From an uncultured Aliarcobacter sp. (lineage in GTDB: Bacteria > Campylobacterota > Campylobacteria > Campylobacterales > Arcobacteraceae): a DNA stretch of 64,000 bases. Positions within the stretch are counted from its first letter, which is position 1. Each line of letters begins with the position of its first letter. The position numbers and the translations under genes are program-made. The notes under the pieces were generated by a model, which was not told where the DNA came from, made no database searches, and saw only the letters and a list, made by a program, of their open reading frames with translations. Shown piece after piece: positions 13,137 to 63,445 of the stretch. The stretch is from the NCBI GenBank assembly GCA_963664305.2, contig CAXXLV010000002.1, positions 576,001 to 640,000 of the forward strand, written 5' to 3'.

Positions 13137-13138
13137 AA

Positions 13139-14431: not shown

Positions 14432-14436
14432 TAGAT

Positions 14437-44406: not shown

Positions 44407-45873
44407 TTATTTGTCTCTTTCTAAATACTCTTCATCACCCATTTTATCATTTTTACCACGTGCAATAACGTGAATTGGAGTTCCTTCAAAATTGAATTGT
44501 TCTCTTAAGAAGTTGATTAAATATCTTTTATACGTAAAGTGTAAAAGACTTGGTTTATTCATTACAAGAGCAATTCTAGGCGGTCTTGTACTAAATTGCG
44601 TTGCATAATAAATTCTTAAATAAGCACCATTTGGACTTGGAAGTGAATGTCTAATTACTGCTTCTTCAATTACTCTATTTAATTGAGAAGTTGGAATTCT
44701 TTGTGTATAGTTATTGAAAATTTCAATAATTTTATCTTTAAGTCTTTCTATACTTCTTCCCGTTTTTGCTGAAACTGCAATAATTGGAGCATAAGATAAA
44801 AATCTAAATCTTCTTCTGATTTCCTCTTCAATTTTTTGGAATGTATCCATATTTTCATCCCATTTATTTAAAACAATAATTGTTCCTAATCCATATTCAT
44901 CTACTAATCCAGCAATTTTTTCATCTAAATCAGTAAGTTCTCTTGAAGCATCTAAAACAACTAAAGCCATATTTGCTTTTTCTAACATCTCTTTAGTTCT
45001 CATTAAAGCATATTTTTCAATACCTTCAATACTTCCTCTTCTTCTTAATCCAGCTGTGTCAACGAAAGTAATTTGTTTTTCTTTAAATTCAAATGATTCA
45101 TCAACGGGGTCAATTGTAGTTCCAGCAATAGGAGAAACAACTGATCTTTCTTCTCCTAATATTGCATTTAATATTGAAGATTTCCCAACATTTACTCTTC
45201 CTATAATTGCAACATTGATTTTGTTTTCATCAATTTCAGCAACTTCTTCTTTAACAAAATCTTCATCTGATTCTAAAGAATAATCTTCTTCATCGTCAAA
45301 ATCAAAATTTTCTTCTCTCTCTTTTCTTAAAGCTTCTGCTTCTTCTCGGGCAACTGTTTCAAGATTAACAGGAAGATGTTGATAAATCCATTCAAATAAA
45401 TTTTTTGTTCCTCTATTATGAGAAACTGAGATTCCAAAAAGATTTTCATCTCCAATACCAAACTCAAAAAATTCCCAAAGTCTTTCTAATTCTTTATCAT
45501 TATCAATTTTATTTACAACTAGGGCTAATTCTTTCCCTAATCTTTGAAGCTCATAAAATAATTCTTTATCCTTATCATCTGGTATATTTTTACCATCAAC
45601 CATAAAAAGTATTATATCAGCCTCTTTTGCTGTTTCTATAGCTTTTCTTTTTACATTTGAAAAAATGGCATCATTAGTTTCATCGATACCACCAGTATCT
45701 AACATTAATGCTTTTCTATCCATAATTTCAATTTCATGTTTTCTAATATCTCTTGTAGTTCCAGCCATATCCGATACAATAGCAATTCTTTTATTTGCAA
45801 TTCTATTAAATAGTGATGATTTTCCTACGTTTGGTTGCCCTATTAGTGCAATCTTTTTTAGTGTTTTATCCAT
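44407..45873 (-). CDS. der: Ribosome biogenesis GTPase Der
   Basis: Two GTPase domains (GQPNVGKSS, GRVNVGKSS), acidic linker, KH-like C-terminus. Confidence 0.98.
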   Translation of the reverse strand: MDKTLKKIALIGQPNVGKSSLFNRIANKRIAIVSDMAGTTRDIRKHEIEIMDRKALMLDTGGIDETNDAIFSNVKRKAIETAKEADIILFMVDGKNIPDDKDKELFYELQRLGKELALVVNKIDNDKELERLWEFFEFGIGDENLFGISVSHNRGTKNLFEWIYQHLPVNLETVAREEAEALRKEREENFDFDDEEDYSLESDEDFVKEEVAEIDENKINVAIIGRVNVGKSSILNAILGEERSVVSPIAGTTIDPVDESFEFKEKQITFVDTAGLRRRGSIEGIEKYALMRTKEMLEKANMALVVLDASRELTDLDEKIAGLVDEYGLGTIIVLNKWDENMDTFQKIEEEIRRRFRFLSYAPIIAVSAKTGRSIERLKDKIIEIFNNYTQRIPTSQLNRVIEEAVIRHSLPSPNGAYLRIYYATQFSTRPPRIALVMNKPSLLHFTYKRYLINFLREQFNFEGTPIHVIARGKNDKMGDEEYLERDK

Positions 45874-45910
45874 AAATATTTTAAATCCTAAGTTTTTTTG
45901 TTTTTTAAAT

Positions 45911-45943
45911 AAAAAAAGGTATTAGCATTATAGCTAATACCTT
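45911..45943 (-). terminator. Rho-independent terminator of hpf
   Basis: AAGGTATTAGC-ATTATA-GCTAATACCTT with a U-tract on the minus strand. Confidence 0.8.
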
Positions 45944-45965
45944 CATTAAATAAAAGAGGTTTATA

Positions 45966-46508
45966 TTAATATAATCCAAATTTACCAGCAACTGAACTTT
46001 TATATAAAACTCTCATATTATCATCTTTATCAATAAATACTTTGAATAAAGCGTCTGATGCCTTTAAATCTTCTAAAGCTTCTTCAATATCTATTGGTTT
46101 ATAAGATGTTAATCTTACAGGAGTAATTTCGTCTTCAAATTTCTCTAATTCTAATGCAATTTTATCTTGAATTTCATTAGCTTCAACTTCAGATAATTTA
46201 GTAGCTTTATGAGCTGCAATTTTATCATGATGTCTTCTTAATACTTTAGATACTCTATCAACTGCAATATCAATTGCAGCGTATAAATCTTTATCTTTTT
46301 GTTTTACAACAATAGTATCTAAATGAGCAATATTTAAAGTGAATTCAAAAGAGAAAGCTTTTTTACCATGTTTTTCATCTTGTGAAATAATTGAGTTTAC
46401 AGAAATAATATCTAAATTATATTTTTTAAACACTTCTACTGAGCTATTAATGTAATCTTTGATCGCATCTGTTAATTCTATGTGTCTTCCTACAATACTT
46501 GTATTCAT
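45966..46508 (-). CDS. hpf: Ribosome hibernation promoting factor (long HPF/RaiA)
   Basis: GRHIELTDAIKDY, DLYAAID, C-terminal KP..EEA domain. Confidence 0.94.
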   Translation of the reverse strand: MNTSIVGRHIELTDAIKDYINSSVEVFKKYNLDIISVNSIISQDEKHGKKAFSFEFTLNIAHLDTIVVKQKDKDLYAAIDIAVDRVSKVLRRHHDKIAAHKATKLSEVEANEIQDKIALELEKFEDEITPVRLTSYKPIDIEEALEDLKASDALFKVFIDKDDNMRVLYKSSVAGKFGLY

Positions 46509-46657
46509 AACATACTCCTTAATTATAATTTATTTATTCTAACATAAAAAACATAAAATGGGTAATATTCTCTATAAAATAACACTTGTATAACCTTGTA
46601 AATGGAGAGAAATTTTGATAATTTTTTGAATTCTTAACAAATTACGCTTAGAAAAGA

Positions 46658-47509
46658 CTAAGCGTAATTAAATATAGAAGAATTTGAGTTTGAAAGGTTT
46701 TTAACGTAACTATTTAGTTCACTATTATTAGTTTGATTATTCATCATTTGCATAATATTTTTAAAGTTACTTAAATCTAAATTCTCTGAAGGATTTGAAC
46801 TATTAGATTTTATAGTATCAAGTAATAATTTTACAGTATCTTTTATAGTTGAATTATCAGCTGTTTCATTAGATATTCCTAATGCAGCATTTTTTTCTTC
46901 TTGAGATACAATACCATCTTTATTAGTATCAAGTTCATCATATTCTTCTTCATCAGTTGACGCTGCTGAACCACCACTTCCTCCACCTTTAGGTGGTGGC
47001 ATTGATGCTACAGATTCAGAAGAAGAGCTATTAGTTACTTGATTATATGCACTTGTTAACTCGTCTGTTGAAATTGAACCATCACTATCAGTATCTAATG
47101 CAGAAAACTCTTCATCACTTAAGATTGAAACTTCACTTGCACTAAGTAATGAATCACCATCACTATCATAACTTGACATTATCATAGAACTAAACTCATT
47201 TGCTTGTTGACTAGTTGGTGGTTCAGGCATTTGAAGGCCTAATTCAGATATTAAACTTTCAAATTCTTCTTTTGAAGGCATTTCTCCATCAAAAGAAGAT
47301 AATTTACTATCTATTGCACTTGCAATTTCATTTTGAGTAACTAGTCCATCACCATCACTATCAAGTGTAGAAAACTGTTCTTCACTAACACCTAATTCAT
47401 CAATACTCAAAGATGAATCAGAATTAGTATCACTATTTTTAACTATGTCTTTTGAAATATTACTTATAGGAGACATCATACCTATAGAACTATACGAAGA
47501 AATTGTCAT
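46658..47509 (-). CDS. Multi-EF-hand Ca2+-binding protein
   Basis: Loops DTNSDSSLSIDE, DSDGDGLVTQNE, DSDGDSLLSASE, DTDSDGSISTDE, DTNKDGIVSQEE; Ser-rich N-terminus, no Sec signal. Confidence 0.88.
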   Translation of the reverse strand: MTISSYSSIGMMSPISNISKDIVKNSDTNSDSSLSIDELGVSEEQFSTLDSDGDGLVTQNEIASAIDSKLSSFDGEMPSKEEFESLISELGLQMPEPPTSQQANEFSSMIMSSYDSDGDSLLSASEVSILSDEEFSALDTDSDGSISTDELTSAYNQVTNSSSSESVASMPPPKGGGSGGSAASTDEEEYDELDTNKDGIVSQEEKNAALGISNETADNSTIKDTVKLLLDTIKSNSSNPSENLDLSNFKNIMQMMNNQTNNSELNSYVKNLSNSNSSIFNYA

Positions 47510-47529
47510 ATTATCCTCCTTTTTTTAAA

Positions 47530-47561
47530 ATCCTATTCTTTTAAAGTAAATAATGGGTAAC
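47530..47561 (-). promoter_or_regulatory. Direct-repeat box plus -10 (EF-hand gene promoter)
   Basis: GTTAC-CCATTA-TTTAC-10 nt-TAGGAT. Confidence 0.72.
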
Positions 47562-47568
47562 AAAATTA

Positions 47569-48906
47569 TTAAGAATCACTAGAACCTTCAATAATTAATT
47601 TTAAAGATGAAAATGCTGTTTCCATTTGCGTAATCAATACCGTATATTCTGCAAATTGTGTAGACATCTGTTCATATTTTTCATCTAATTTATCAGAAGC
47701 TGTTTCATAATCTTCATTTAATGAGTCAATTTTGTCGTTTAATTTATCTTCATAAGTCGTAAAAAGTCCATCTAAGGAATCTAATGAATCTAAATAAGTT
47801 TTCAATTTTGTTCCAATACCTTCTTTTTCTGCATAACCAACAAATAATTCTTTTAAATCATCATAATTATCACTGACAGCTTCTGTTAATTCTGTAGAAT
47901 CAACATTTAAATAACCATCTGTATCAAAAGATATTCCATATTTAAACAGACTCTCTTCATTATCTAATCCATAACTTCCAAATAAAATCTCTTTTATACT
48001 ATTCATCATTGATTTTAAAGTACTTGAATCAGAAATTATTGCTGGGTCATCTTCATCACCCAAAATATAAGAATTTACTAAATCAACTAAATCATTGTAT
48101 TTATCAGCTACATCTTCAATTGTTGATACTAATGTACTAGTATCTCTTTCCATAGTAATTGAAGAATCACCAGTTGTAGTAGCAGTTATTATTAAACCAT
48201 TAGCCATTGTTACTTTATTTGATGAAACATCATAAGAAATACCATCAATTGTTGCTTGCATATTTTGTGCTGTTAAAACATGACTATCTTCTTCTTCAAA
48301 TCCTAAATCTATATCTGTTTGAGAAATAGAAATTGCATTTGATTCTCCAGTTTCAGCACTTTTTATTACAAGTCTATATGAATCATCACCAACTTGTTCT
48401 AAACTTGCTTCAAAATTTGAGTTATAACCCATTTCAGTTACCAAACTTTCATAAGTTTTTCCATCAGTTGAAAAATCATAACTTGTATCTCCAACAGTAA
48501 TAGTTATTGTTCCTGAATCCATTGTAGCTGTTGTATCTGAAATTGTATTTGATTGATATACATCTTTTTGTGCTAATTGACTAACACTAACACTAATTGT
48601 CCCCGGAGTTAATTTACTTGAATCAGTTGCATCAAAAGTTACAGAATCACCTGATGTTGTTGCACTTATTTCATCAAACACATTAGTTCCACTTGTATAT
48701 AAATCAAAATCGTCAACTAAATCAAGTAGTTCTAAAACCATAGTTTCAATTTCAGTTAATGCATCTAATTCAGCTTGTGTATCATCAATTTCATCAGTAA
48801 TTGGGTCTAGAATAGATGTACTTTCTGCTGTTTTTAATTTAGTAATTAAATCTGAACTTAAATCTACACTTCCTGAAGTTCCGAGTCCTAAAATTCCATC
48901 TGCCAT
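47569..48906 (-). CDS. fliD: Flagellar filament cap FliD homologue (acidic)
   Basis: LGLGTSG..LITKL..AE N-terminus, VSQLAQKD, RLVI.S..TG, AQ..IDGI, L...Y..M..QF C-terminus. Confidence 0.88.
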   Translation of the reverse strand: MADGILGLGTSGSVDLSSDLITKLKTAESTSILDPITDEIDDTQAELDALTEIETMVLELLDLVDDFDLYTSGTNVFDEISATTSGDSVTFDATDSSKLTPGTISVSVSQLAQKDVYQSNTISDTTATMDSGTITITVGDTSYDFSTDGKTYESLVTEMGYNSNFEASLEQVGDDSYRLVIKSAETGESNAISISQTDIDLGFEEEDSHVLTAQNMQATIDGISYDVSSNKVTMANGLIITATTTGDSSITMERDTSTLVSTIEDVADKYNDLVDLVNSYILGDEDDPAIISDSSTLKSMMNSIKEILFGSYGLDNEESLFKYGISFDTDGYLNVDSTELTEAVSDNYDDLKELFVGYAEKEGIGTKLKTYLDSLDSLDGLFTTYEDKLNDKIDSLNEDYETASDKLDEKYEQMSTQFAEYTVLITQMETAFSSLKLIIEGSSDS

Positions 48907-48916
48907 TTTATATCCT

Positions 48917-50515
48917 TTACATTGCTAATAGCGTTTGAAGCATTTCATCAACTGCAGTTATCACCTTTGCATTTGCTTCATATGCTGCTTGAAATTGAAG
49001 AAGATTTATCATCTCCTCATCTGAATCTACTTTTGTAAGATTGTTATATGTTGTTTCCAAAGAATTTACTATCGTATTTTGAGATTCTAATTTAAAGTTA
49101 TTATTTTCTACGTTTGAAGAAACTGTAACTAATAAGTTTTGATAAAACTCACTAAATGAAGTATTTGAAGTTGAACCAATAGTTAAATTTGTTGCCCACT
49201 GAATTTCAGATAGGTTTTCTAAGTCATTACTGGTTAAAGAGCTTACATTATCAGAAATAAAATTTAATGTATCAACATTTGAACCAGTAAATAGAGGCGT
49301 ATTACTACTTGAATTAACTAAATCAATTAATGCACTTGCAAATTCATCTAAACTATCTTTATATGAATATATATTTGAAGTTGAAGTTGTAAGCTCTTGG
49401 GTTATAGCCTTTAAAGAACCACTTGTTAGAGATAAACCATTATTATAAACAGCTAATGAAACATTATTTTCAGCTTCAACAGAAGTTGCACTTTTTGATA
49501 TTTCACTACTATTTACAGAAATAGCAATATCAAAAGCCCCCTCTTCTCCTTCAATATTTGATTTAATAATTAAATTATTACTTGAATCAAGATACGCGTT
49601 GTAATTTGAAAAATTTGAGTTTGAATTAATTGCATCAATAATTTGCTGTTTTAATTCATTTTCATCTGTTCCACTAACATTTGCACTTAATGTTAATGAT
49701 GTAGTATTATTTAAAGAAATAGTAATTTCATCTCCATCACTAAAGTTACTATCATCTAAAGAAGATGAAGTATAAATATCTTTTTGTGCAATATTTTCTT
49801 CATTTATACTTACTTCATGTAAATTTGTATCATTAAAAATTACATTTACTCCTGCAATTTTTAGGTTATAAGTATCACTATCTCTATTGATTTCTATATC
49901 AACATAATTTGATAACTCTTTTTCTAAAGCATCTCTTTTATCAAGTAAATCATTTGTTTCACCACTTTGTTGCATCTGTTTATTAAGATAGACTATCTGT
50001 TCTAAAATATCATTTACACTATCAACTTGATCTTGTAATTGTGTATTTAAACTCTCTAAGGTATCATCTAAATCACTGTTTAATGATTGTAAATTATTTA
50101 CTAATAATTGAGATTGAGTTGATAATTCATTTTGATAAATTAAGTTTGTAGGTTCTTCTCTTAATGATTCAATTGAATTAAAAAAGTTACTTAACGTTGT
50201 TGAAAAACCACTACTATCAGCTTCATCAAACATTATTTCAATACTACTTAATATAGTGTCTTCTTGTTCATAATATGAAGCTAAACTACTTTGCGCAACC
50301 AATTTATCATATAAATAACTATTTGTTGTTCTAGTAACTCCATCAAATGATACTCCATTCCCAATATTATCTTCTAAGCTATTTAATTCAGAAGTATTAA
50401 CAACTCTTTTTACATAACCATCTGTATTTTCATTTGCAATATTATTAGAAGTTACATCAACAGAATATTTTGAGGCATCAAGACCACTTTTTGCGATGTA
50501 TAAAGAATTTATCAT
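48917..50515 (-). CDS. flgK: Hook-associated protein FlgK homologue
   Basis: SLYIAKSGL..VTSNNIANENTDGY, NDLLDKRD, VDSDEEMINLLQFQAAYEANAKVI. Confidence 0.93.
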   Translation of the reverse strand: MINSLYIAKSGLDASKYSVDVTSNNIANENTDGYVKRVVNTSELNSLEDNIGNGVSFDGVTRTTNSYLYDKLVAQSSLASYYEQEDTILSSIEIMFDEADSSGFSTTLSNFFNSIESLREEPTNLIYQNELSTQSQLLVNNLQSLNSDLDDTLESLNTQLQDQVDSVNDILEQIVYLNKQMQQSGETNDLLDKRDALEKELSNYVDIEINRDSDTYNLKIAGVNVIFNDTNLHEVSINEENIAQKDIYTSSSLDDSNFSDGDEITISLNNTTSLTLSANVSGTDENELKQQIIDAINSNSNFSNYNAYLDSSNNLIIKSNIEGEEGAFDIAISVNSSEISKSATSVEAENNVSLAVYNNGLSLTSGSLKAITQELTTSTSNIYSYKDSLDEFASALIDLVNSSSNTPLFTGSNVDTLNFISDNVSSLTSNDLENLSEIQWATNLTIGSTSNTSFSEFYQNLLVTVSSNVENNNFKLESQNTIVNSLETTYNNLTKVDSDEEMINLLQFQAAYEANAKVITAVDEMLQTLLAM

Positions 50516-50524
50516 AATAAACTC

Positions 50525-50899
50525 CTAATAGATTCTTTTTACATCAACAAAATCAATAAAAGTTACAGTATCATCTAAAATATATTTTTTTTCTAAAGCA
50601 TCTATTCCTAGAACTTCATGACAAACTAAATATATTTTATTATCTTTTGTTGTTTGAATTGAACTAACATTAAATTGTCTAAAACCTCTTTCACCATTTC
50701 TTAATCTACCATCTTCAACAACTCTGTCAATAATATTTACAATATTTGTCATAGTTAATAAATTCATTGATTTTTGTAATTGAATTACCATTGATTCTAA
50801 ATTATCAAAATTTGTATTTTGATAATTATTCATAAAATAGCTATAACACTCAATTACTTGTGATTCTAGTCCTTTTATATCCATAATATTATTTTTCAT
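50525..50899 (-). CDS. Truncated FlgD-like (Tudor-type C-domain) protein
   Basis: Aligns by eye with the neighbouring FlgD C-region; ATG at 50899 behind an AAGGA RBS. Confidence 0.7.
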   Translation of the reverse strand: MKNNIMDIKGLESQVIECYSYFMNNYQNTNFDNLESMVIQLQKSMNLLTMTNIVNIIDRVVEDGRLRNGERGFRQFNVSSIQTTKDNKIYLVCHEVLGIDALEKKYILDDTVTFIDFVDVKRIY

Positions 50900-50912
50900 T
50901 TTCAATCCTTTT

Positions 50913-52046
50913 TTAACTTAAATATTTAACTAATGACAAGTTATTTACTTTGTTGATAGTTGAGTATAAAGCTGTATATGTATTTTCTAAAGCTTGAGAT
51001 TCAACAGCAAGTGCAGTTAAATCTGCTGCACCAACTGTTTCTTGTAAAATGCTAAAGTTTGTTAATTTTGTTTGAACAATTGATTCATAGTTTTCAATTG
51101 AAGCAGTTCTTATTCCAAGTTTTGCATGAGCTAAATTTACACTATCGTAAATATCTCCAATTTTATCAACGTAACTTGATAAAATAGAATCTGCTTCATC
51201 TTCAGTTATTGAATTACCATTAGAATCTTGTTGTTTTAACGCATTTATAACTTCATCTAAATCATCAAAAACTGAGTGTTTTGATGTTAAAGAAGTTGTT
51301 CCAGTGTTAGTAGTTGTAAAAGTTCCATCTCCATTATCTGTAATTGATAGAGCTGTTTGTGAACTATCCCCATTTAAATATAATCCATTATAAACACCAT
51401 CATTATCAGTATCTAATAATTTATATTGATTACCATCTTTATCTAGAATAATTTCATTTTCTTCAAATGTTAAATTTTCACCAGTTTGTGCTGTTTGATT
51501 TGTATAATATAGAAGCTCAATACCATTTAATCCTTGATTATTATAAGTATTTGTTTCAACATTAATTGTTTTATTGTCATTTGTTGATACATAAGAAATT
51601 CTTCCAGTTGTTTCATCTTTTACAAAAGGTTGTGTTGTTACACTATTTCCAGAAAAAAGGTATTGATTACTTGCACTACTATTTGCAAGCGAGTATATAT
51701 AATCTTTAATAGATTCTAATTCATTTGCAATAGTTTCTTTATTATCACTATCAGTTGTATCTGTAGATGCTTTTAAAATCAAAGATTGAGCTGATTCAAG
51801 AGATGTTTTTATACTTGAAACGGCTGTATCACTTGTCGTATTAAATGAATTAGATGATTGAATTCTATCTAAGATTGAACTATAAGAATTAACACTATTA
51901 TTTATTGATAATAATTGATTATACTTTGAAGAATCATCGCTACCATATTGTAAAGCTTCATTACTACTTAATCCATAAGTTACTTTTTCATTTCTACTAT
52001 TTAATAGACTTAAATTGTACATAATAGTATTTATTGAACTAACCAT
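50913..52046 (-). CDS. flgL: Hook-associated protein FlgL homologue
   Basis: Flagellin-type N-terminus with SDD, IANEL, LAN...YLFSG; C-terminal SLVKYL. Confidence 0.85.
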   Translation of the reverse strand: MVSSINTIMYNLSLLNSRNEKVTYGLSSNEALQYGSDDSSKYNQLLSINNSVNSYSSILDRIQSSNSFNTTSDTAVSSIKTSLESAQSLILKASTDTTDSDNKETIANELESIKDYIYSLANSSASNQYLFSGNSVTTQPFVKDETTGRISYVSTNDNKTINVETNTYNNQGLNGIELLYYTNQTAQTGENLTFEENEIILDKDGNQYKLLDTDNDGVYNGLYLNGDSSQTALSITDNGDGTFTTTNTGTTSLTSKHSVFDDLDEVINALKQQDSNGNSITEDEADSILSSYVDKIGDIYDSVNLAHAKLGIRTASIENYESIVQTKLTNFSILQETVGAADLTALAVESQALENTYTALYSTINKVNNLSLVKYLS

Positions 52047-52059
52047 AATAAACTCCTAA

Positions 52060-54030
52060 TTATCTTTTTAGACCTATTAATGTTGTTAGAATTTCATCTG
52101 CTGTGGTAATAGATTTTGCATTTGCTTCAAAAGCTCTTTGAAATACCATCAAATTAACTAAACTCTCACTCAAATCTGCTGTACTTAATTCTAAAGTTTC
52201 ACTTTCAACTGATACACCATTATTATTATTTACTGCATAGATTGGATTTCCACTCTCTTTAGTTGCAGCTAATAGATTATTTCCTATTGACTCTAATCCT
52301 ATATTGTTTGTAAATTGAGCAATTGCAACTTGTCCGATAACAAAATCAACTCCGTCTTGAGTCATAGTTATTATTCCACTATCATCAACTGAAAATTCTC
52401 CAAAAGATGAATCAGTTAATCCTAAAGAGCTTAGATTTAATTGTAAAGAAGACAAAGAAGTTGTTTGATTTACAGTTGAAATAATTTGCATAAATTCTGC
52501 ATTAGCACCACTATTTCCACTTGCATCTTGATTTCTTTCTTTTGTATAAACAGTTCCACCATCATCAAACTCAATTACACCCGAGAATTCTTCTCCAGGA
52601 TTTTTTGCTTCAATAACTAACATTCCATTTATTGTTTTTGCTTCAACTTGAGTTTGTAAATCTGCATCTGTATTTATTTTTGAAATCAAATCTTGAATAG
52701 CACTATTGTAATCTGTAAGAGTGTTATCACTTGTTACTGTAACACCATTTAAAGTAAAAGATATTGTATCTCCAACATCGAAACTTAAAATATTTCCATT
52801 ATCATCGCTAATAATATCTGCAGCTTCATATACATCTTGTTGAGTACCAGCTACTGCATCTCTTAGTGCTTCCATTGCACTTTTAACTGCTGCTTCACCA
52901 GTTCCTTCAACAGCATTTGTTAGAGTTGTTTTTGTTCCAACTTGTTCTGTTGTTCCTGAAACTTCAGCTAAATCACCAAGTGTAAATGATGTTCCTGGAA
53001 TTATTGAATCTATTTTTATTGCACCATTTAAAACATCAACATTTGAGGTACTTGCACTATTTGTTGAATCAACTGTATAAGCTTTTAATCCAGTAATTTT
53101 TGAAATTTCATCAGCTAAAGATTTATATGTTGCTACCCTACTTGCAAGTACATTATATTCTTCATCAGTTGTTACACCAGATGTTGTAATCCCTGCTGCA
53201 TCCATTTCTGCTTTAAATGAATCTGTTGCCGTAGTAGTTACATAATTTTGTGTAATTTTATTTCCATCAACATATACGTAAATTTGATCACTTTCACTAT
53301 CTAATAAACTTGTTCCTGTATTTGGATAATCTATTAGTGTTGTTTGAGCTATTGATGTACTACTTGACTCTTCTGGATTTTCAGCATAACTTTCTAAAGC
53401 TTTATTATAATTAGTAATTAATGCTTCAATATCAGAGATTTTTGCAGATTGTGTCTTTATTCCTGAACCTGAAAGTTCAGTTGAGTCACTTTTAGCACTG
53501 GTAGTATAATCAGACATTTTTGCAGCATAAGTTTGGATTTTATTTGAAAATTGAATTACTTGATTTCCTGCAATTTCACTAAAAGCATCAGTAAAATATG
53601 TTAGATTTGAATTTGTAGAAGTAATATCAGATGATGGATCAATTGTACTAATTGCCCATCCTTGAACTTCATTTCCAGAAGCATCTTGTAAAGTTCCATT
53701 TTCTCCCATTCTAAAATTTCCAGCTCTTGTATAGTAATTTTCAGATGTTCCACTAAAGTTTTTATTTGATACAACAAAAAAACCATCTCCATCAAGTGCT
53801 AAATCATAAGATGAACCCGTTAAATTTAAACTTCCTTGTGTATATTGTTTTTCTGCATTTGTAACAGATGAACCTTTTCCTATACTGTCTTGATACATCA
53901 AATCAGCAAAAGAAACTCTTGATGCTTTATATCCAACAGTATTTACGTTTGCAATATTATTTGACTCATTATCTAAAGCTGTTTGCTGAGAAGAAAGTCC
54001 TGCAATTCCAGTCCATAATGCACTAATCAT
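52060..54030 (-). CDS. flgE: Flagellar hook protein FlgE homologue
   Basis: SNNIANVNTVGYK, DLALDGDGFF, YTRAGNF, LELSTADLSESLVNLMVFQRAFEANAKSITT. Confidence 0.92.
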   Translation of the reverse strand: MISALWTGIAGLSSQQTALDNESNNIANVNTVGYKASRVSFADLMYQDSIGKGSSVTNAEKQYTQGSLNLTGSSYDLALDGDGFFVVSNKNFSGTSENYYTRAGNFRMGENGTLQDASGNEVQGWAISTIDPSSDITSTNSNLTYFTDAFSEIAGNQVIQFSNKIQTYAAKMSDYTTSAKSDSTELSGSGIKTQSAKISDIEALITNYNKALESYAENPEESSSTSIAQTTLIDYPNTGTSLLDSESDQIYVYVDGNKITQNYVTTTATDSFKAEMDAAGITTSGVTTDEEYNVLASRVATYKSLADEISKITGLKAYTVDSTNSASTSNVDVLNGAIKIDSIIPGTSFTLGDLAEVSGTTEQVGTKTTLTNAVEGTGEAAVKSAMEALRDAVAGTQQDVYEAADIISDDNGNILSFDVGDTISFTLNGVTVTSDNTLTDYNSAIQDLISKINTDADLQTQVEAKTINGMLVIEAKNPGEEFSGVIEFDDGGTVYTKERNQDASGNSGANAEFMQIISTVNQTTSLSSLQLNLSSLGLTDSSFGEFSVDDSGIITMTQDGVDFVIGQVAIAQFTNNIGLESIGNNLLAATKESGNPIYAVNNNNGVSVESETLELSTADLSESLVNLMVFQRAFEANAKSITTADEILTTLIGLKR

Positions 54031-54069
54031 TTTTAATCCTTTATAATTAATAGTGATTCCACTTATTTA

Positions 54070-54101
54070 ATCATAAAGGTTTAGGGTAAATTTAGGGTAT
54101 C
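54070..54101 (-). promoter_or_regulatory. Direct-repeat box plus -10 (flgE promoter)
   Basis: GATAC-CCTAAA-TTTAC-10 nt-TATGAT. Confidence 0.72.
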
Positions 54102-54122
54102 TAGAAAATAAATAGTTTTAAT

Positions 54123-54155
54123 AATTTACTAACCGTTGGTAACAGTTAGTAAATT
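54123..54155 (-). terminator. Hairpin at the flgD 3' end
   Basis: AATTTACTAAC...GTTAGTAAATT inverted repeat overlapping the stop codon. Confidence 0.55.
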
Positions 54156-54898
54156 TTGGTAATATTATTGTAAGAAATAGTTTTTGCTTCAGTATCATAA
54201 GCTGTTGCCGTATCTTCTGTATATGCAAGTGCTAAGTTACTTTGTGAAATAGATGAAGAACCATTACTAACAGAAACAACTAATTGATAATTTCCACTTG
54301 TATTTTGAACTACACTTGCAGTCATTCCTGATGTTTGCGAAATTTCTGTTGCTAATTCATCATAAGTTTTATTATAAGTTGAATATGTATAGCTATTTCC
54401 ATCACTATTTGTTAACGTAATTGAGCTATCTTCATTTGTTGAATCAACAACATCTGAACCACTCGATACTTCATCAAAATAATATACATCATAATAACCA
54501 GATAATTCATAAGCAGTTAAAGTAATTTCTCCATCATTCATGGATACTGAGGAAATTCTATATTGTTTATTATTACCTTCATCATCTGTATCCCCATTTT
54601 CTACGATATTTCCAATTAATGATGCAGAACTAGAAAGTGCTGATTGTTCAAAAGTTGATTGTAAAGCTTCCATTGCTTCTACTGTAGCTGTACTTGCTTC
54701 TAAATTTGATAATTGAAGTTGAGTATCAAGCATTGTTGAAGAATCAACTGCACTTGTTGGATCTTGAAGTTTTAATTGTGTTAGCATCAATGTAATAAAA
54801 TCAGAACTTTCTAATTGATCATTACTAACTGCTGAAGTGACTGTATTACCATAAGCATCTAATGATGAGCTTGTTGTTATCGAACTTGTAGTTGACAT
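54146..54898 (-). CDS. flgD: Hook capping protein FlgD homologue with FliD-like inserted domain
   Basis: DFITLMLTQLKLQDP...D...MLDTQLQLSNLE, ASLIG. Confidence 0.9.
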   Translation of the reverse strand: MSTTSSITTSSSLDAYGNTVTSAVSNDQLESSDFITLMLTQLKLQDPTSAVDSSTMLDTQLQLSNLEASTATVEAMEALQSTFEQSALSSSASLIGNIVENGDTDDEGNNKQYRISSVSMNDGEITLTAYELSGYYDVYYFDEVSSGSDVVDSTNEDSSITLTNSDGNSYTYSTYNKTYDELATEISQTSGMTASVVQNTSGNYQLVVSVSNGSSSISQSNLALAYTEDTATAYDTEAKTISYNNITKIY

Positions 54899-54928
54899 AT
54901 TATACTCCTTAATGGTATAGAATAAAAA

Positions 54929-54981
54929 ATTCTAACTATATGGAGTAAATATAGGGTATTAAAGAGTAAATAAAAGGTAAC
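54929..54981 (-). promoter_or_regulatory. Tandem direct-repeat boxes plus -10 (flgD promoter)
   Basis: GTTAC-CTTTTA-TTTAC-5 nt-AATAC-CCTATA-TTTAC-10 nt-TAGAAT. Confidence 0.75.
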
Positions 54982-56303
54982 TAGTTATTAATATTGATAT
55001 AAAAATGATGATAACCATCAATATATTTATATTCAAGTTTATAATTATGAATTTTGATAATATTATTTGAAATATAAAGCCCAAGCCCTAAACCACTTGT
55101 TGCAGTTTCATAGTCATGATTAAATGGTTTATAATATTCTTCAATATCTTTTGTTAGTTTTTCTCCTTTGTTAATTATTTCTATTGAATTTTCTTCAATG
55201 ATGATTTTAGGTTCTTCTTCTAAACTATATCTTATTGCATTATCAATTAAATTTTTTATAGCAATAGAAAATAGTTCAAAATCTGCATTAATTTTTAAAT
55301 CAGCTTTATCTTCTATTTCAATAGAATGTTCATCTAATAACAAAATATCAAAAGATTGATCAACTAATTCAATGATATGATATTCATTTTTATTTAGAGT
55401 AATTTTGCCAGAAGTTAATTCTTCTATTTTTGCAAACTCACTTAATAAATATTCTAGTCTTTGAAAGACCCTAATTAATATATATTTTCTTTCACTATCT
55501 TCATAAAAATCTGTAATTAATTTACCTTTTGTAATAGGTGTTTTTAATTCATGCATTATGTTTCTTAAAAAAAGATTTCTTGAATCTCTCAACTCTTTTA
55601 GCTGTTTTAATGCATTTGAAAATTCTCTTGTAAGTTCAGAAATTTCATCTTTCCCATTTATTTTTGTAGTGATTTTGAAGCTTCCTTTTGATAGATTAAT
55701 CATATCTTCTTTTAAACTAAGAAGAGGTCTTAATTTTTTTCTAATAAATAGGAAAAACCAAATTAATGAAATATTAACTACACTTAAAACAACTAACCAA
55801 AAATACTTAAACTCATTCTCTTTTAATTCATCAATTAATAATATTTCATGTGGCTTAGGTCTTAATTTAAAAAAAATAGGTTCTTCAAATCTTTCAAATA
55901 GTGGTTTTTCTGGTGGAGGAGGCATTTTTCTAAAATCAGGAAATTTAGGATTAAAATGTATATATTTAACACCATTTAACATATACGTATCAATTGGAGC
56001 TTCATCATCTATTTTTATTTTTTTATAATTTGATGTTAATAAATCTTCAAAACTTTTCTCAGATAATCTCATATCAAATACTGAGATTTTATCATTTATC
56101 TCTTGTAATGATGCATTCTTCATATTTAAATCTTCTACAATTCTAACTGTTGACATATATCTTTTTACTTCTAATAAAGAGTAAGTTTTACTATCTACAA
56201 TAAATTGTATAGTTATAATAATATTAATAATTAAGAAAATAGAAAAGAAAAAAAGTTTAATTTGAAAAAATATAGAATCTTTTTTATTGATTAACCAATT
56301 TAT
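54981..56303 (-). CDS. Two-component sensor histidine kinase (HAMP-HisKA-HATPase)
   Basis: HELKTP, NLIDNA, GLGLGL; frame is open upstream of ATG 56156 through a TM helix to ATA at 56303 (start uncertain). Confidence 0.9.
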   Translation of the reverse strand: MNWLINKKDSIFFQIKLFFFSIFLIINIIITIQFIVDSKTYSLLEVKRYMSTVRIVEDLNMKNASLQEINDKISVFDMRLSEKSFEDLLTSNYKKIKIDDEAPIDTYMLNGVKYIHFNPKFPDFRKMPPPPEKPLFERFEEPIFFKLRPKPHEILLIDELKENEFKYFWLVVLSVVNISLIWFFLFIRKKLRPLLSLKEDMINLSKGSFKITTKINGKDEISELTREFSNALKQLKELRDSRNLFLRNIMHELKTPITKGKLITDFYEDSERKYILIRVFQRLEYLLSEFAKIEELTSGKITLNKNEYHIIELVDQSFDILLLDEHSIEIEDKADLKINADFELFSIAIKNLIDNAIRYSLEEEPKIIIEENSIEIINKGEKLTKDIEEYYKPFNHDYETATSGLGLGLYISNNIIKIHNYKLEYKYIDGYHHFYININN

Positions 56304-56970
56304 AACCTACTCCTCTAATTGATAATATATATTTTGGTTTTTTTGTGTCTTCTTCTATTTTTGCTCTAACTCGACCAATTAAAACATCAATACTTTTATA
56401 TGAGCTTTCATATTTTATAGAATCAACATTAGAAAGTAATTCTTCTCTTGAAACAACAAAACCACCTTTTTGAATCATATATTGAAGTATAAAATACTCA
56501 GCATTTGTTAAATCAAGAAGTTCTTCATCTTTATATATTTCCATTTTAGATTCATCAAAAGTAAATATTTGTTTTTTATTTAAAGGAGATTCTTTTTCAA
56601 TAATTTGATGATTACATCTTTTTAAAATAGATTTTATTCTAAGTATTAATTCTTGTGTATCATATGGTTTTGGCATAAAATCATCAGCTCCATAAGAAAA
56701 ACAAGCAATTTTATCACCTAAATATGACCTTGCAGAAGAAATTATAATTGGTAAATCAAATTTTTGTCTAATTATTCTACAAACTTCTATGCCATCAATA
56801 TTTGGCAATGATAAATCTAATATTACTAAATCATATTTTTTTAAAGAAAGTGCAGATATTCCAAGCTCTGGAGTATCATAATTTGTAACAATTATGTTAT
56901 ATTGGCTTAGATATTCAGTTAAAATTCTAGCTAGTTCTGTATCATCTTCAATCATTAAAATATTAATCAA
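56284..56970 (-). CDS. OmpR/PhoB-family response regulator
   Basis: IEDD, DLSLP..DG, KPY, winged helix SIDVLIGRVRAKIE...RGVGY. Confidence 0.95.
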   Translation of the reverse strand: MINILMIEDDTELARILTEYLSQYNIIVTNYDTPELGISALSLKKYDLVILDLSLPNIDGIEVCRIIRQKFDLPIIISSARSYLGDKIACFSYGADDFMPKPYDTQELILRIKSILKRCNHQIIEKESPLNKKQIFTFDESKMEIYKDEELLDLTNAEYFILQYMIQKGGFVVSREELLSNVDSIKYESSYKSIDVLIGRVRAKIEEDTKKPKYILSIRGVGYKLVNQ

Positions 56971-56996
56971 ATTTTTACTCCTTATTTACTTTTTGA

Positions 56997-57028
56997 ATTA
57001 TAGTATATCAATGTAAATAAAAAGTAAC
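56997..57028 (-). promoter_or_regulatory. Direct-repeat box plus -10 (response regulator promoter)
   Basis: GTTAC-TTTTTA-TTTAC-10 nt-TATAAT. Confidence 0.75.
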
Positions 57029-57034
57029 AATTTG

Positions 57035-59269
57035 TTAAATCAAGATTTCTCGATTTCCTTTGGCATTTACTTCTGATAAAATTCCAGTTTGTTCTAACTG
57101 TTCAACAATTGTTGCTGCTCTATTGTATCCAATTCTAAGTCTTCTTTGAATATATGAGATTGAAGTTTTTTTCTCTGTTAAAACAATCTCTTTTGCATCT
57201 TCATATAATTCATCAAGTTCAGCTAAATCTGAATTATTTGAATTTCCACCACTAGATGAAGAAACTCCTGAGTTTCTATCTTTTATAAAGTTCATATCAT
57301 AAGAAACTTCTCTTTGGTCTTTTAAAAACTCTACAACTTTTTCAATTTCAGATTCTGTCGACCAAGGCGCATGAATTCTCACTAGTCCAGACATTCCAGG
57401 AGGTGTAAATAACATATCTCCCCTTCCTAAAAGAGATTCAGCACCCATTGAATCTAAGATGATTTTAGAATCTATTTTTTGCCCTACTTTGTATGATAAT
57501 CTACTTGGTAAATTTGCTTTAATAAGTCCTGTAACAACATCAACGGATGGTCTTTGAGTTGCAACTATTAAGTGAATTCCAGAGGCTCTTGCCATTTGTG
57601 CAAGCCTTGCAATTGAATATTCAACATCTTTTCCACTTGTCATCATTAAATCTGCTAACTCATCAATTACAACAACTATATAAGGCATTGTTTCATAACC
57701 TTCATTTTTAGCTTTTTCATTGTAATTCTCAATGTTTTTTGTTTTTGTTTTTGACATTAATGTATAACGTCTTTCCATCTCACTAACCATATTTGCTAGT
57801 GCATTTATTGCATCACTTGCTTTTGTAATAACTGGAGTTAAAAGATGTGGAATATCGTTATACATTGAAAACTCAAGCATTTTTGGATCAATCATCACTA
57901 ATCTTAAATTATCTGGTGAATTTTTATAAAGTAAAGATAAAATCATTGAATTTATTCCAACTGATTTTCCTGAACCCGTTGTTCCAGCAATTAAAAGATG
58001 TGGAAGTTTTTTTAAATCTGTGATAAATGGTTTACCAACAATATCTTTTCCTAAAATCATTGTAAGTGGTGAAATAGAATTTTGGAAAATTTCACTTTCT
58101 AACATCTCTTTTAGATATATTGTTTGTGTATCTTCATTTGGAACTTCAATTCCCACAACATCTTTTCCAGGAATTGGAGCTTGAATTCTTATTGTTTGAG
58201 CTTTTAAAGCCATTGCTAAATCATCTTGAAGACTCAAAATTTTTGAAACTTTTACATTTGGTGCTGGTTTAAACTCAAAAGTTGTTACAACTGGACCTGT
58301 ATAAGTTCTTACAACATCACCTTCAATTTTAAACATTGCAAGCTTATCTAATAAATCTCCAATTTTTTGGTCAATAAAAGATTCTGAAACTTTTGATTTA
58401 TTATCTTTTGGAGGATTTTGAAAAAATGATGTTGGAGGTAATTCAAAATTTTTTGGTTTTTCTGTTTTACCTACTTCAATTTCTGCTAAAAGCTTTTTAT
58501 TTTCTTCCAACTCATCTACAATAATCCCATGAGATTCTACAACTTGAATATCTTTTTCAAAATCATCACTATCAAATAAAGAAGATTCATAAATATTTGT
58601 ATCTTTTATTTCTTCTATATTCTCATATATTTCTGGAGTTATAGTTGCAATATTTGTAGTAGTTTCCTGTTTTATCTCTTTAACTTCAGGAATAGTTTTA
58701 GTAAGTTTTTTATCTATACTCTTTAAAACCTCTTTAGTTGTCTCTTCAACTCTTTTTTCTCTTCGTTTATTTTCAATTCTTTTAATATCTAAACTATTTT
58801 TTAATTTAATTTTATTCTTTAATTTTTTTAAATCTTCAATATCAAAATCTGAATTTTCAAATAAAACTAAAAATGAGATAATAAATCCAACTAAAACAAA
58901 GAAATAAAGTCCAGCACGTCCAATCACTGGGCTTAAAGAATCAACTAAAATATTTCCAATTTCTCCTCTTGAATAAGGATTTTCAATAACTAAAGCTTGG
59001 AAAATCAAACAAACAAAAAGTAATAAAAATACAACTAATATATTTAGTATTAAATCTTTTTGGTCAATATTTTTTTTGAAATTAATCATATAAAGTGGAA
59101 AAATCAATAGTAATAAATATATATAAGATAAATATCCAAAATATTTATGAGAAAAATCAGAAAATAAATATCCAACATTTCCCACAATATCTTTTCCACT
59201 TTCAAATGTAGAAAATTGAAAATAAACAATAATAAATAAAATAATTAGGGATATAATTTTCTTAGCTAT
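57035..59269 (-). CDS. ftsK: DNA translocase FtsK
   Basis: GTTGSGKS, IDPK, DELADLMM, ATQRPS, gamma domain QRRLRIGYNRAA; frame open to ATA at 59269 (ORF track start GTG 59185). Confidence 0.96.
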   Translation of the reverse strand: MAKKIISLIILFIIVYFQFSTFESGKDIVGNVGYLFSDFSHKYFGYLSYIYLLLLIFPLYMINFKKNIDQKDLILNILVVFLLLFVCLIFQALVIENPYSRGEIGNILVDSLSPVIGRAGLYFFVLVGFIISFLVLFENSDFDIEDLKKLKNKIKLKNSLDIKRIENKRREKRVEETTKEVLKSIDKKLTKTIPEVKEIKQETTTNIATITPEIYENIEEIKDTNIYESSLFDSDDFEKDIQVVESHGIIVDELEENKKLLAEIEVGKTEKPKNFELPPTSFFQNPPKDNKSKVSESFIDQKIGDLLDKLAMFKIEGDVVRTYTGPVVTTFEFKPAPNVKVSKILSLQDDLAMALKAQTIRIQAPIPGKDVVGIEVPNEDTQTIYLKEMLESEIFQNSISPLTMILGKDIVGKPFITDLKKLPHLLIAGTTGSGKSVGINSMILSLLYKNSPDNLRLVMIDPKMLEFSMYNDIPHLLTPVITKASDAINALANMVSEMERRYTLMSKTKTKNIENYNEKAKNEGYETMPYIVVVIDELADLMMTSGKDVEYSIARLAQMARASGIHLIVATQRPSVDVVTGLIKANLPSRLSYKVGQKIDSKIILDSMGAESLLGRGDMLFTPPGMSGLVRIHAPWSTESEIEKVVEFLKDQREVSYDMNFIKDRNSGVSSSSGGNSNNSDLAELDELYEDAKEIVLTEKKTSISYIQRRLRIGYNRAATIVEQLEQTGILSEVNAKGNREILI

Positions 59270-59279
59270 GATAAAGCCT

Positions 59280-60227
59280 TTATTTTAATAAATTTGAAAT
59301 TTTTCCTTGTAATTTAAGCCATTGTCTATGCTCAAATAAAGGGAAACCTGCCCAAGATTTTTTTGGTTCAGTAATTGTTTTTGTAACACCACCACGAGCT
59401 GCAATTGTAGTAAATGGAGCTATTTCTAGATGTCCAGCTGTTGCACTTTGTCCACCCATTACAACATAAGGATGAAGAGTTGTTGAACCTGATAATCCAA
59501 CTTGAGATACTAAAATACAACCTGAACTTATTTTACAATTATGTCCAATATGAACTAGATTATCAATTCTAACACCGTTGTCAATTTTAGTTGTTTTAAA
59601 TACAGCTCTATCAATAGTACAATTTGCACCAATTTCAACATCGTTTCCAATTTCAACATTACCATTTTGATAAATTTTTATATATTTACCATCTTTAGTA
59701 TTTGCAAATCCAAAACCATCACTTCCAACAACAGTTCCTGCGTGAATAATACAATCATCACCTATTTTACAATCTCTATAAACTGTCACATTTGGGTAAA
59801 TAATAGTATTGTTTCCAATTTTTACATTATCACCAATATATGCACCAGCCATAATAGTACAATCACTTCCAATAACAGAATTTTTACCAATATAAACATT
59901 TGGCATAACTTTTGTACCACCACCAATTAATGGTTTTTCACCATCCATTTCTATAACATTTGGTGCAAAAAGTTTACTAATTTTTGCTAACATTAAATAT
60001 GGTTCATCACAAATTAAAGCAATAGTATTTTCTGGAACTTCACTTGAATTTTCAAGTGTAACTAAAACTGCTGCTGCTTTTGTATTTTTTAAATCTGATA
60101 AATATTTTTTATTTTCTAAAAAAGTAAGTTCAAACTCTGTTGAATCTGTTAATGTATTTAAACCAGTTATCTCTTTGTCACTATTTATATTTAAACCAAT
60201 ATAATTTGCAATTTCTTGAAGAGTCAT
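59280..60227 (-). CDS. lpxD: UDP-3-O-acylglucosamine N-acyltransferase
   Basis: GSDGFGF, DVEIGAN..IDR, IDNLVHIGHN, hexapeptide repeats. Confidence 0.97.
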   Translation of the reverse strand: MTLQEIANYIGLNINSDKEITGLNTLTDSTEFELTFLENKKYLSDLKNTKAAAVLVTLENSSEVPENTIALICDEPYLMLAKISKLFAPNVIEMDGEKPLIGGGTKVMPNVYIGKNSVIGSDCTIMAGAYIGDNVKIGNNTIIYPNVTVYRDCKIGDDCIIHAGTVVGSDGFGFANTKDGKYIKIYQNGNVEIGNDVEIGANCTIDRAVFKTTKIDNGVRIDNLVHIGHNCKISSGCILVSQVGLSGSTTLHPYVVMGGQSATAGHLEIAPFTTIAARGGVTKTITEPKKSWAGFPLFEHRQWLKLQGKISNLLK

Positions 60228-62641: not shown

Positions 62642-63445
62642 ATGGATGTAAATGCAATAAATAATAATTCTATATCAAGTTTAAACACTTCATCATCTTC
62701 TTCTTTACAACTAGAAAAAACCTCTCAAAGTGGTAGGATTAATAATTCTGAAAAAGATGCATTAAGTTTAAGTATCAGTGATTATAATAAACAAAGAGAT
62801 GAACTTTCTTTAAATATTCAATCATTTAATGATGGAATTGCAATATCAAAAATAGCTCAAAATGGAATATCAAAACAACAAGAATATTTAAGTAATGTTC
62901 AAGATAAACTTCAAAATATTAATAATTTACAAAATAAAAATGATATAAAACAAAGTATCAATGAAGATTTAAGAAATTTTAATCAAACTGCATATGAAAC
63001 AAAATATAAAAATGATAATTTATTAGTTCAAAATTATTATGATGACAAATCAACTATTGATATAAATACAAGTACTGGAAATTTTTCTGTTGAAAAAACA
63101 AATACTGCAACTTTCGCAAATGATATTTTTGAAACAGTAAATAATAGTGATTTAAATAATCCAGAAAACGTTTCAAATGCTTTAAATAAAGTTTCAACAG
63201 CATCATCTCAATTAAACGGATTATCTGAACAATTTTCACAATTTAGTAAACAATTAGAAGAAAAAGCATTAGAAAATATAAAAGAGCAAAATAATTTATA
63301 TAAAGAAAATCAAATGAATAAACCAAAAGATTTTGGTAGAGAATCAACTGATTTTTCAAAAGCAAATATTAATGCAAATGCAGGATATTTAGCAGCTTCT
63401 CAAGCAAATATCGTTCAAGCACAAAGTGTAAAAGTTATAGGTTAA
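62642..63445 (+). CDS. Short flagellin-like protein (FlaC-like)
   Basis: NDGIAISKIAQ (flagellin N-helix) and DFGRESTDFSKANINANAG..AASQAN (flagellin C-terminus); TATAAT and AAGGAG upstream. Confidence 0.75.
   Translation: MDVNAINNNSISSLNTSSSSSLQLEKTSQSGRINNSEKDALSLSISDYNKQRDELSLNIQSFNDGIAISKIAQNGISKQQEYLSNVQDKLQNINNLQNKNDIKQSINEDLRNFNQTAYETKYKNDNLLVQNYYDDKSTIDINTSTGNFSVEKTNTATFANDIFETVNNSDLNNPENVSNALNKVSTASSQLNGLSEQFSQFSKQLEEKALENIKEQNNLYKENQMNKPKDFGRESTDFSKANINANAGYLAASQANIVQAQSVKVIG

Follow-up and report, generated by a model that had tools for sequence, protein, structure and literature searches.

An operator-like direct-repeat element at four promoters of an OmpR-family two-component system and an accessory hook gene cassette in Arcobacteraceae

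The pho box, the binding site of the response regulator PhoB, ends 10 bp from the −10 element, and the sites of Campylobacter jejuni PhosR and DccR are direct repeats of a pentamer with an 11-bp period. According to two papers, pho boxes are built of two 11-nt direct repeats bound head-to-tail (PMC4415409, PMC3348028), and the box overlaps the −35 region (PMC3348028). Control of flagellar genes of the Arcobacter type, by comparison, is an acknowledged gap. The genome paper of A. butzleri describes RpoN, FliA, and FlgRS as absent and suggests completely novel flagellar regulation (PMC2147049), and a 2022 comparative study finds no DNA-binding regulator in or near Arcobacter flagellar loci and calls the regulators unknown (PMC9321776); the same two sources report Arcobacter species without FlgRS, RpoN, and FliA (PMC2147049, PMC9321776). 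Here, we analyzed a 64,000-nt stretch of DNA from an uncultured Aliarcobacter sp. (assembly GCA_963664305.2, contig CAXXLV010000002.1, positions 576,001 to 640,000 of the forward strand; referred to as the window, with a G+C content of ∼27%), in which four promoters carry the element RWTAC-N6-TTTAC-N10-TANNAT, a box of two direct repeats followed by a −10 element. We regard it as a real, conserved cis-element restricted to this locus. Very probably it serves the neighboring two-component system as an operator, in the manner of a PhoB site, and we assign a probability of roughly 70% to the prediction that the local regulator activates the four promoters.

On the minus strand of the window, to which all window coordinates refer unless stated otherwise, the genes lie in the order lpxD-ftsK-RR-HK-flgD-flgE-flgL-like-orf126-flgK-fliD-EF-hand gene-hpf-der, where RR is a response regulator, HK is a histidine kinase, and orf126 encodes a 126-aa protein; the flagellar genes from flgD to fliD are called the cassette. 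A first-pass annotation, made from the letters alone, had placed the element at four promoters, and all four were recovered at the coordinates it gave: the RR(-HK) operon promoter at 56997..57028 (GTTAC-N6-TTTAC-N10-TATAAT), the proximal flgD promoter at 54929..54960 (AATAC-N6-TTTAC-N10-TAGAAT), the flgE promoter at 54070..54101 (GATAC-N6-TTTAC-N10-TATGAT), and the promoter of the EF-hand gene at 47530..47561 (GTTAC-N6-TTTAC-N10-TAGGAT). The second, distal flgD box of the annotation, GTTAC-CTTTTA-TTTAC, is likewise present at 54966..54981, where it begins at the HK stop codon; the two flgD boxes make up a run of four repeats phased 11/10/11. All four sites share the 11-bp period and have TANNAT at the same 10-nt distance.

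These four matches compare with a mean of 0.01 in 100 dinucleotide-preserving shuffles of the window, among which the largest count was 1 and none contained four or more. Across the source genome (2,780,884 bases; G000 in coordinates given below), the full pattern matches four times, every time within this 9.5-kb cluster, which is not a background frequency; the shorter RWTAC-N6-TTTAC matches 66 times, 5 of these in the cluster. A position matrix derived from orthologous loci only (54 distinct sites, none of them from the window) scored the window sites at 29.3 to 36.3 bits, against 14.2 bits for the fifth-best match in the genome and 20.7 bits for the lowest training site.

The sites lie in the noncoding DNA of the locus. 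Between the ftsK stop and the EF-hand gene there are four real noncoding gaps of 59 to 115 nt, with one motif site in each; the ftsK-RR gap (64 nt) is nearly all box, −10 element, and Shine-Dalgarno sequence, and the seeming 127-nt gap between RR and HK is HK coding sequence. The four −10 elements end 20 to 39 nt ahead of the start codons, and a Shine-Dalgarno sequence is found at every start codon. Because the gaps inside flgE-flgL-orf126-flgK-fliD measure only 7 to 13 nt, these five genes are taken to be one operon. A terminator scan found none inside the cluster, and an Rfam scan of positions 45000 to 60000 at an E value of ≤0.1 gave no matches.

The boxes are retained at the RR, flgD, flgE, and EF-hand promoters of orthologous regions. 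A search with the RR returned 80 loci, 22 with an RR 64 to 88% identical and 58 with a more distant RR. A loose pattern, TAC-N6-TTTAC-N10-TANNNT, was found in 21 of the 22, with 58 plus-strand matches that all fall at the four kinds of promoter just named; among the 58 loci with a distant RR, 2 had one match each. Two minus-strand matches (L019 and L020) were rejected as chance, since they lie inside a MoxR ATPase coding sequence at the peptide FTPDLLPSDI. When a box-only matrix was applied, a box of at least 12 bits was found upstream of the RR in 27 of 29 loci, upstream of flgD in 16 of the 21 loci that have the gene, upstream of flgE in 18 of 20, and upstream of the EF-hand gene in 18 of 19; the nineteenth EF-hand locus, L166, was mis-anchored in this count and has a 33-bit full site. 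Because the matrix was trained on L001 to L022, the rows for those loci are partly circular, and L163 to L169 and the window are the independent rows; L004 and L005 are duplicate contigs of one assembly. By the same matrix, no box was found in the upstream regions of HK, flgL, flgK, and fliD (maximum, 6.9 bits), and at least 12 bits is reached at 39 of 5.56 million genomic positions. No other feature of the loci is as constant as the box that precedes the RR itself.

Within the sites, the pentamers and the −10 element are fixed across genera and the letters of the N6 and N10 spacers and the flanks vary. The TTTAC that lies 10 nt upstream of the proximal flgD box is retained in orthologous flgD sites, and an unanchored alignment of 16 flgE upstream regions (mean column identity, 59%) retains the AC of the first pentamer, the TTT of TTTAC, the −10 element, and the Shine-Dalgarno sequence. 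Whole genomes of the same genus were scanned with a slightly relaxed pattern and with a backwards-read control. The four other complete genomes that bear the cassette gave 5, 6, 4, and 5 matches, 4 of each in the locus, against 1 to 3 matches per genome for the control; a fifth genome, which has no cassette, gave 3 matches, 2 of them at its own RR and EF-hand promoters. Taken together, these comparisons indicate that the boxes are under purifying selection and are found together with this regulator.

Two of the related loci are unusual in other ways. L002, from a record titled as a Candidatus Paceibacteria metagenome-assembled genome, holds the whole Arcobacteraceae-type locus, with 73 to 88% protein identity to the window and 88% for the RR, and the contig is probably mis-binned. 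In L019 to L022 (about 9965-10003), the −10 element of the RR promoter ends only 5 nt before the ATG, and for that reason the RR mRNA may be leaderless there. Further features adjoin the flgD and flgE sites of the window. The flgD −10 element TAGAAT sits within an inverted repeat, TAGAAT-N5-ATTCTA (54911-54934), also seen in several orthologues. A small conserved hairpin in the 5′ leader of flgE (54045-54065) directly follows the predicted flgE start site and varies in a compensatory manner among orthologues (AGTG..CACT, GTGA..TCAC, and GATG..CATC); its position fits that start site, and it may be a 5′-end stabilizer. Across the flgD stop codon (54123-54156), an 11-bp inverted repeat has GTTAC in its loop and a weak T-rich run after it, and could be a hairpin with an attenuating role, placed between flgD and the promoter of flgE; CTGTTAC after the flgD stop is retained in 10 of the 16 orthologues of the flgE upstream alignment. 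Public RNA-type libraries, from wastewater, offered only assembled contigs, which cover parts of the cluster and cannot show starts, strand, or level. They are mostly 90 to 95% alike and hence come from relatives, and they support the proposed regulation neither way.

The first-pass annotation assigned the regulator (56284..56970, TTG start) to the OmpR family, and domain searches bear this out, with a receiver domain (PF00072, 84.3 bits) and a winged-helix Trans_reg_C domain (PF00486, 70.2 bits). By reading, the receiver has its acceptor Asp (LDLSLP), the acidic pair (EDD), the Ser of IISSA, and the Lys of MPKPY. The full-length protein matches the KdpE, RegX3, BaeR, and MtrA structures with E values of 1e-33 to 3e-30, and its DNA-binding domain matches Protein Data Bank entry 2k4j (E value, 2e-26), which the match table names a putative regulator and which we take to be the DNA-binding domain of Helicobacter pylori ArsR. 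The RR fails the PhoB models (TIGR02154, 127.3 bits against a cutoff of 296.2; NF053854, 125.5 bits against 270) and the CtrA model (134.6 bits against 350), and no PF00158 (Sigma54_activat) domain was found in it. The recognition-helix stretch KS(I/V)DV(L/M)I(G/S)R(V/I/L)RxK shows almost no variation among 24 orthologues and is different in three RR paralogues of the source genome, which argues weakly for the RR as the protein that binds the boxes.

The kinase (54981..56291) passes the ArsS-family sensor histidine kinase model NF038389 (340.8 bits; cutoff, 250) and by reading is a membrane protein with two transmembrane helices on either side of an outside loop of ∼100 aa. It was called from an ATG at 56156, and the frame is open upstream (56157-56291), where it encodes a conserved N terminus, LINKKDSIFFQ..., with the first transmembrane helix. 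The homologous start codon, which overlaps the RR stop, is ATG in L012, L014, and L017, ATC in the window (56291-56289) and in L001 to L008, ACG in L015, and ATT in L016. This pattern suggests a noncanonical start or a translational coupling that would keep kinase levels low.

In light of the motif geometry, we propose the following mechanism. The box arrangement resembles the binding of OmpR/PhoB-family dimers over the −35 region, as the first-pass annotation had noted, in its direct repeats, its 11-bp period, its overlap with −35, and its fixed N10, which is also found in the orthologues. Phosphorylated RR would bind head-to-tail as a dimer to the pentamers [G/A][T/A]TAC(C/T) and TTTAC, 11 bp apart. 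Because the promoter-proximal pentamer ends 10 bp from TANNAT, the dimer would lie over roughly −38 to −23, where it would replace the missing −35 element and recruit RpoD polymerase, as PhoB does at pho boxes. The units driven would be the RR-HK operon itself (positive autoregulation), flgD2 (with two tandem boxes), flgE2-flgL2-orf126-flgK2-fliD2, and the EF-hand gene, the suffix denoting second copies as described below. In this proposal we infer the identity of the bound protein, whether it activates or represses, where transcription starts, and what the signal is.

Several points weigh against this proposal. H. pylori ArsR is reported to repress its own operon (PMC9449129), and positive autoregulation is therefore not a given in the lineage; in addition, a site in this position, −38 to −23, might just as well obstruct polymerase. 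Some promoters have no good box, namely, those of the RR in L011 and L169, of flgE in L012 and L168, and of flgD in L014, L015, and L017. The loci share ancestry, and their kinship therefore confounds both the co-occurrence and the conservation. Finally, no box lies near the RR of L024 (Sulfuricurvum), even though its recognition helix is very similar; the motif therefore cannot be predicted from the helix alone.

The first alternative is that the same regulator binds the same boxes but represses, blocking RpoD at otherwise constitutive AT-rich promoters until a signal relieves the block. The boxes overlap the core promoter, Campylobacterota promoters often function without a −35 element, and the negative autoregulation of ArsR noted above offers a precedent. 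However, the geometry is that of PhoB-type activator sites, with direct repeats, an 11-bp period, and −35 overlap. The fixed 10-nt distance to the −10 element across genera fits a face-of-helix contact with polymerase, which occlusion would not need, and flgD, like flgE of L163, has additional repeats upstream and in phase, an arrangement that resembles multi-box activated promoters. We consider repression unlikely.

It is similarly improbable that another factor, such as a paralogous OmpR-family regulator, binds the boxes and that the neighboring RR is a bystander. The source genome does encode RR paralogues that are 47 to 51% identical to the RR, each with its own kinase, but their recognition helix differs, the RR's own promoter has a box in the 27 of 29 loci counted above, boxes are found only where an RR orthologue is present, and the association survives three gene orders.

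A third possibility is that the repeat is read directly by a sigma factor, as an unusual −35 element or by an alternative sigma, with no activator at all. TTTAC is like part of a −35 hexamer, and at two of the sites a generic sigma-70 scan reports hexamer pairs that are shifted (57030-57002 and 54962-54935, 9/12 matches). That scan, with 94 sites against 83.4 expected, is uninformative at 27% G+C. Neither pentamer lies 16 to 19 nt from the −10 element (as −35 elements they would leave spacers of ∼9 or ∼20 nt), and the joint conservation of two phased pentamers points to a dimeric protein. The supply of sigma factors is also small. Sigma70_r2 has one match in the genome, the 635-aa RpoD, and the same search found neither FliA nor ECF sigma factors; the promoter gaps contain no GG-N10-GC and no sigma-28-like match. 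These results agree with the claim of the first-pass annotation that the module is read through sigma70 rather than sigma54 or sigma28. RpoN, the only other sigma factor found, is present in the source genome, unlike in A. butzleri; the G000 coordinates reported for RpoN and a GAF-AAA-HTH activator are C1:749514-749972 and C1:732658-733158. This activator, which has no receiver domain, is the sole strong PF00158 protein of the genome, and nothing convincing in the way of sigma-54-like elements was seen by eye upstream of the flagellin genes. (A. butzleri is described differently from the source genome, with no RpoN and seven ECF factors.) Direct reading by a sigma factor is thus very doubtful. 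Least credible of all is that the boxes are a leftover of promoter duplication at cassette assembly with no present function: the four promoters do fall in a span of 9.5 kb, and the box of flgD closely resembles that of flgE, but the pentamers and −10 elements stay fixed across genera as the spacers and flanks change, and the RR and EF-hand boxes persist in genomes never showing the cassette at this site.

Under activation by the local RR, the predicted targets would include flagellar genes. The main flagellar set of the source genome is complete and of the Arcobacter type, in two large loci: C1 at about 234-266 kb (flhA, fliI, flhB, fliR, fliK, flgC, fliE, flhG, flhF, motAB, two flgE-like genes, flgD, fliN, fliH, fliG, fliF, rod genes, and cheY) and C2 at about 1722-1732 kb (fliS, fliD, flgK, flgH, fliL, fliQ, flgI, and fliM). 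There are three flagellin genes in the genome. The cassette adds flgD2 (54146..54898), a paralogue of the hook-cap gene whose product shares 44% identity over 116 aa with FlgD of the main locus, and the flgE2-flgL2-orf126-flgK2-fliD2 operon (47569..54030), with paralogues of the main-locus hook, junction, and filament-cap genes; FlgD, FlgE, FlgL, FlgK, and FliD of the window are 34 to 50% identical to the main copies. Besides the small orf126, only these five genes have second copies. No second basal body, export apparatus, or motor was found, Pfam matches in the two main loci being single copies of these genes, and the genome matrix scan found no box at the main flagellar loci or the three flagellin genes. 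The cassette flgD-flgE-flgL-orf126-flgK-fliD is an accessory second hook, junction, and cap set, and not the main flagellar genes. The idea of a master switch of Arcobacter flagella was rejected on two grounds, the missing site at the main loci and the three flagellins and a strong orf126 match in only 19 of 184 family genomes. On the plus strand, a 267-aa open reading frame at 62642-63445, about 5.7 kb from the cluster and without a box, has a weak Flagellin_N match (25 bits, below the cutoff) and no Pfam match at 1e-6.

A FlgE tree of 45 rows (quick search, rooted only at the midpoint) places the cassette copies in a single clade within Arcobacteraceae FlgE (SH-aLRT 100, stem length 0.44), and the main FlgE of the source genome groups with the main FlgEs of its own genus. 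The 19 genomes with a strong orf126 match, which include 11 of 44 in this genus counting the source genome, all fall within the 44 of 184 family genomes that have an RR orthologue (E value, ≤1e-75); a strong match was found in 0 of the 140 others. Because L011 and G093 have the cassette without orf126, the gene undercounts the cassette, which is found in about a tenth of family genomes. An ESM Atlas search with orf126 reached a top score of 0.84, a lead only. Weak orf126 homologues (E values, 1e-4 to 1e-11; open reading frames of 160 to 230 aa) adjoin the main flgE in other genera, for example, at G080:C1:66681-66950 and G164:C2:55854-56132, and on account of this position orf126 may belong to an uncharacterized family of hook-associated proteins.

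The remaining predicted target is an acidic 283-aa protein (46658..47509) that contains several EF-hand loops and in which no signal peptide is evident by reading; an ESM Atlas search returned only other EF-hand clusters. Its tie to the regulator extends beyond the cassette. In L167, of the same genus, lpxD-ftsK-RR-HK-EF-hand occupies the same chromosomal position, both promoters have boxes, and flagellar genes are missing, and L019 to L022, from distant family members with an RR 64 to 66% identical, have RR-HK and the EF-hand gene with boxes at both and again no flagellar genes; apart from the RR and EF-hand sites, whole-genome scans of these four gave background counts. In L020 and L022, an RND efflux operon encoding an AcrB-like pump and an outer membrane factor lies between HK and the EF-hand gene (about 11980-17570), and in L020 it is preceded at 11937-11983 by a degenerate GTTAT-N6-TTTAT-N10-TATAAT, with T for C in both pentamers. 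In L163 and L164, which belong to another genus, the RR and flgE-flgL-flgD-flgK-fliD are arranged divergently, and at the flgE promoter four repeats phased 11/10/11 end 10 nt before TAGAAT.

The pairing of regulator and EF-hand gene survives without the cassette and across gene orders, and the two are therefore the constant pair. From these comparisons, the conserved core is the regulator, the kinase, and the EF-hand gene, the oldest predicted targets are the regulator itself and the EF-hand gene, and the hook cassette has joined this pair in at least two gene orders. From the EF-hand partner, we infer at most a calcium or cation signal. A broader and quite tentative account, which we think possible but would not bet on, is that an ancestral ArsS/OmpR-type system served the EF-hand protein and that cargo was repeatedly inserted between them, each with its own box: the hook cap, hook, junction, and filament-cap set in some Arcobacteraceae and the RND efflux operon in others. 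Such a system may sense calcium or another envelope cation, given its ancestral EF-hand target, and the spare hook, junction, and cap would remodel a single polar flagellum on cue, these extracellular parts being rebuilt with the same basal body and flagellins. If this were true, the locus would provide signal-dependent remodeling of flagellar parts and not a second flagellum.

The four promoters described here offer a concrete predicted regulator-operator pair on flagellar structural genes in Arcobacteraceae and are the first testable pair of this kind in the family. The box is absent from the main flagellar loci and leaves their regulation unexplained. The partial duplication is unusual in comprising extracellular parts only, without flagellin, and its predicted two-component control and tie to an EF-hand gene raise the question of what purpose a switchable hook, junction, and cap set serves. 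No published description of this system was found in the open-access literature searched, which did not extend to the supplementary gene-arrangement figures of PMC9321776, where the cassette might be shown.

Among known arrangements, dual polar and lateral flagella likewise have a second structural gene set under separate environmental control, but here only FlgD, FlgE, FlgL, FlgK, and FliD and a small protein are duplicated and no flagellin bears a box. In the Alphaproteobacteria, CtrA and FtcR/Rem are also OmpR-family winged-helix regulators that activate flagellar genes through sigma-70-type promoters, and in Rhodobacter sphaeroides the second flagellar set (fla2) is driven by CtrA as well; whereas those proteins govern whole flagellar hierarchies, the RR appears limited to an accessory hook, junction, and cap cassette. 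FlgS/FlgR with RpoN, in Campylobacter and Helicobacter, is a two-component system placed, as here, to switch on flgD, flgE, flgK, and other genes of the hook stage. FlgR, however, is a sigma-54 activator, whereas the RR has no Sigma54_activat domain and its promoters have a TANNAT −10 element and no GG-N10-GC, and, set against FlgS, the kinase of this locus is a membrane protein with two transmembrane helices. H. pylori ArsRS, an acid-responsive two-component system of the OmpR type, resembles the pair in its proteins, given that the kinase passes the NCBIfam ArsS-family model and the RR matches 2k4j; the predicted regulon here is nevertheless tiny and local, no acid-response role is implied, and, unlike that of ArsR, described as self-repressing (PMC9449129), the autoregulatory site has activator geometry. 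The site itself is like that of E. coli PhoB, a regulator for which direct repeats with an 11-bp period likewise overlap the −35 region of sigma-70 promoters. As with PhoB, certain promoters have additional boxes in tandem, and the operon that encodes the regulator has a box of its own. What sets the present system apart from PhoB is a pentamer core in place of a heptamer, an ArsS-family kinase, and a set of predicted targets made up of hook genes and an EF-hand protein rather than phosphate genes.

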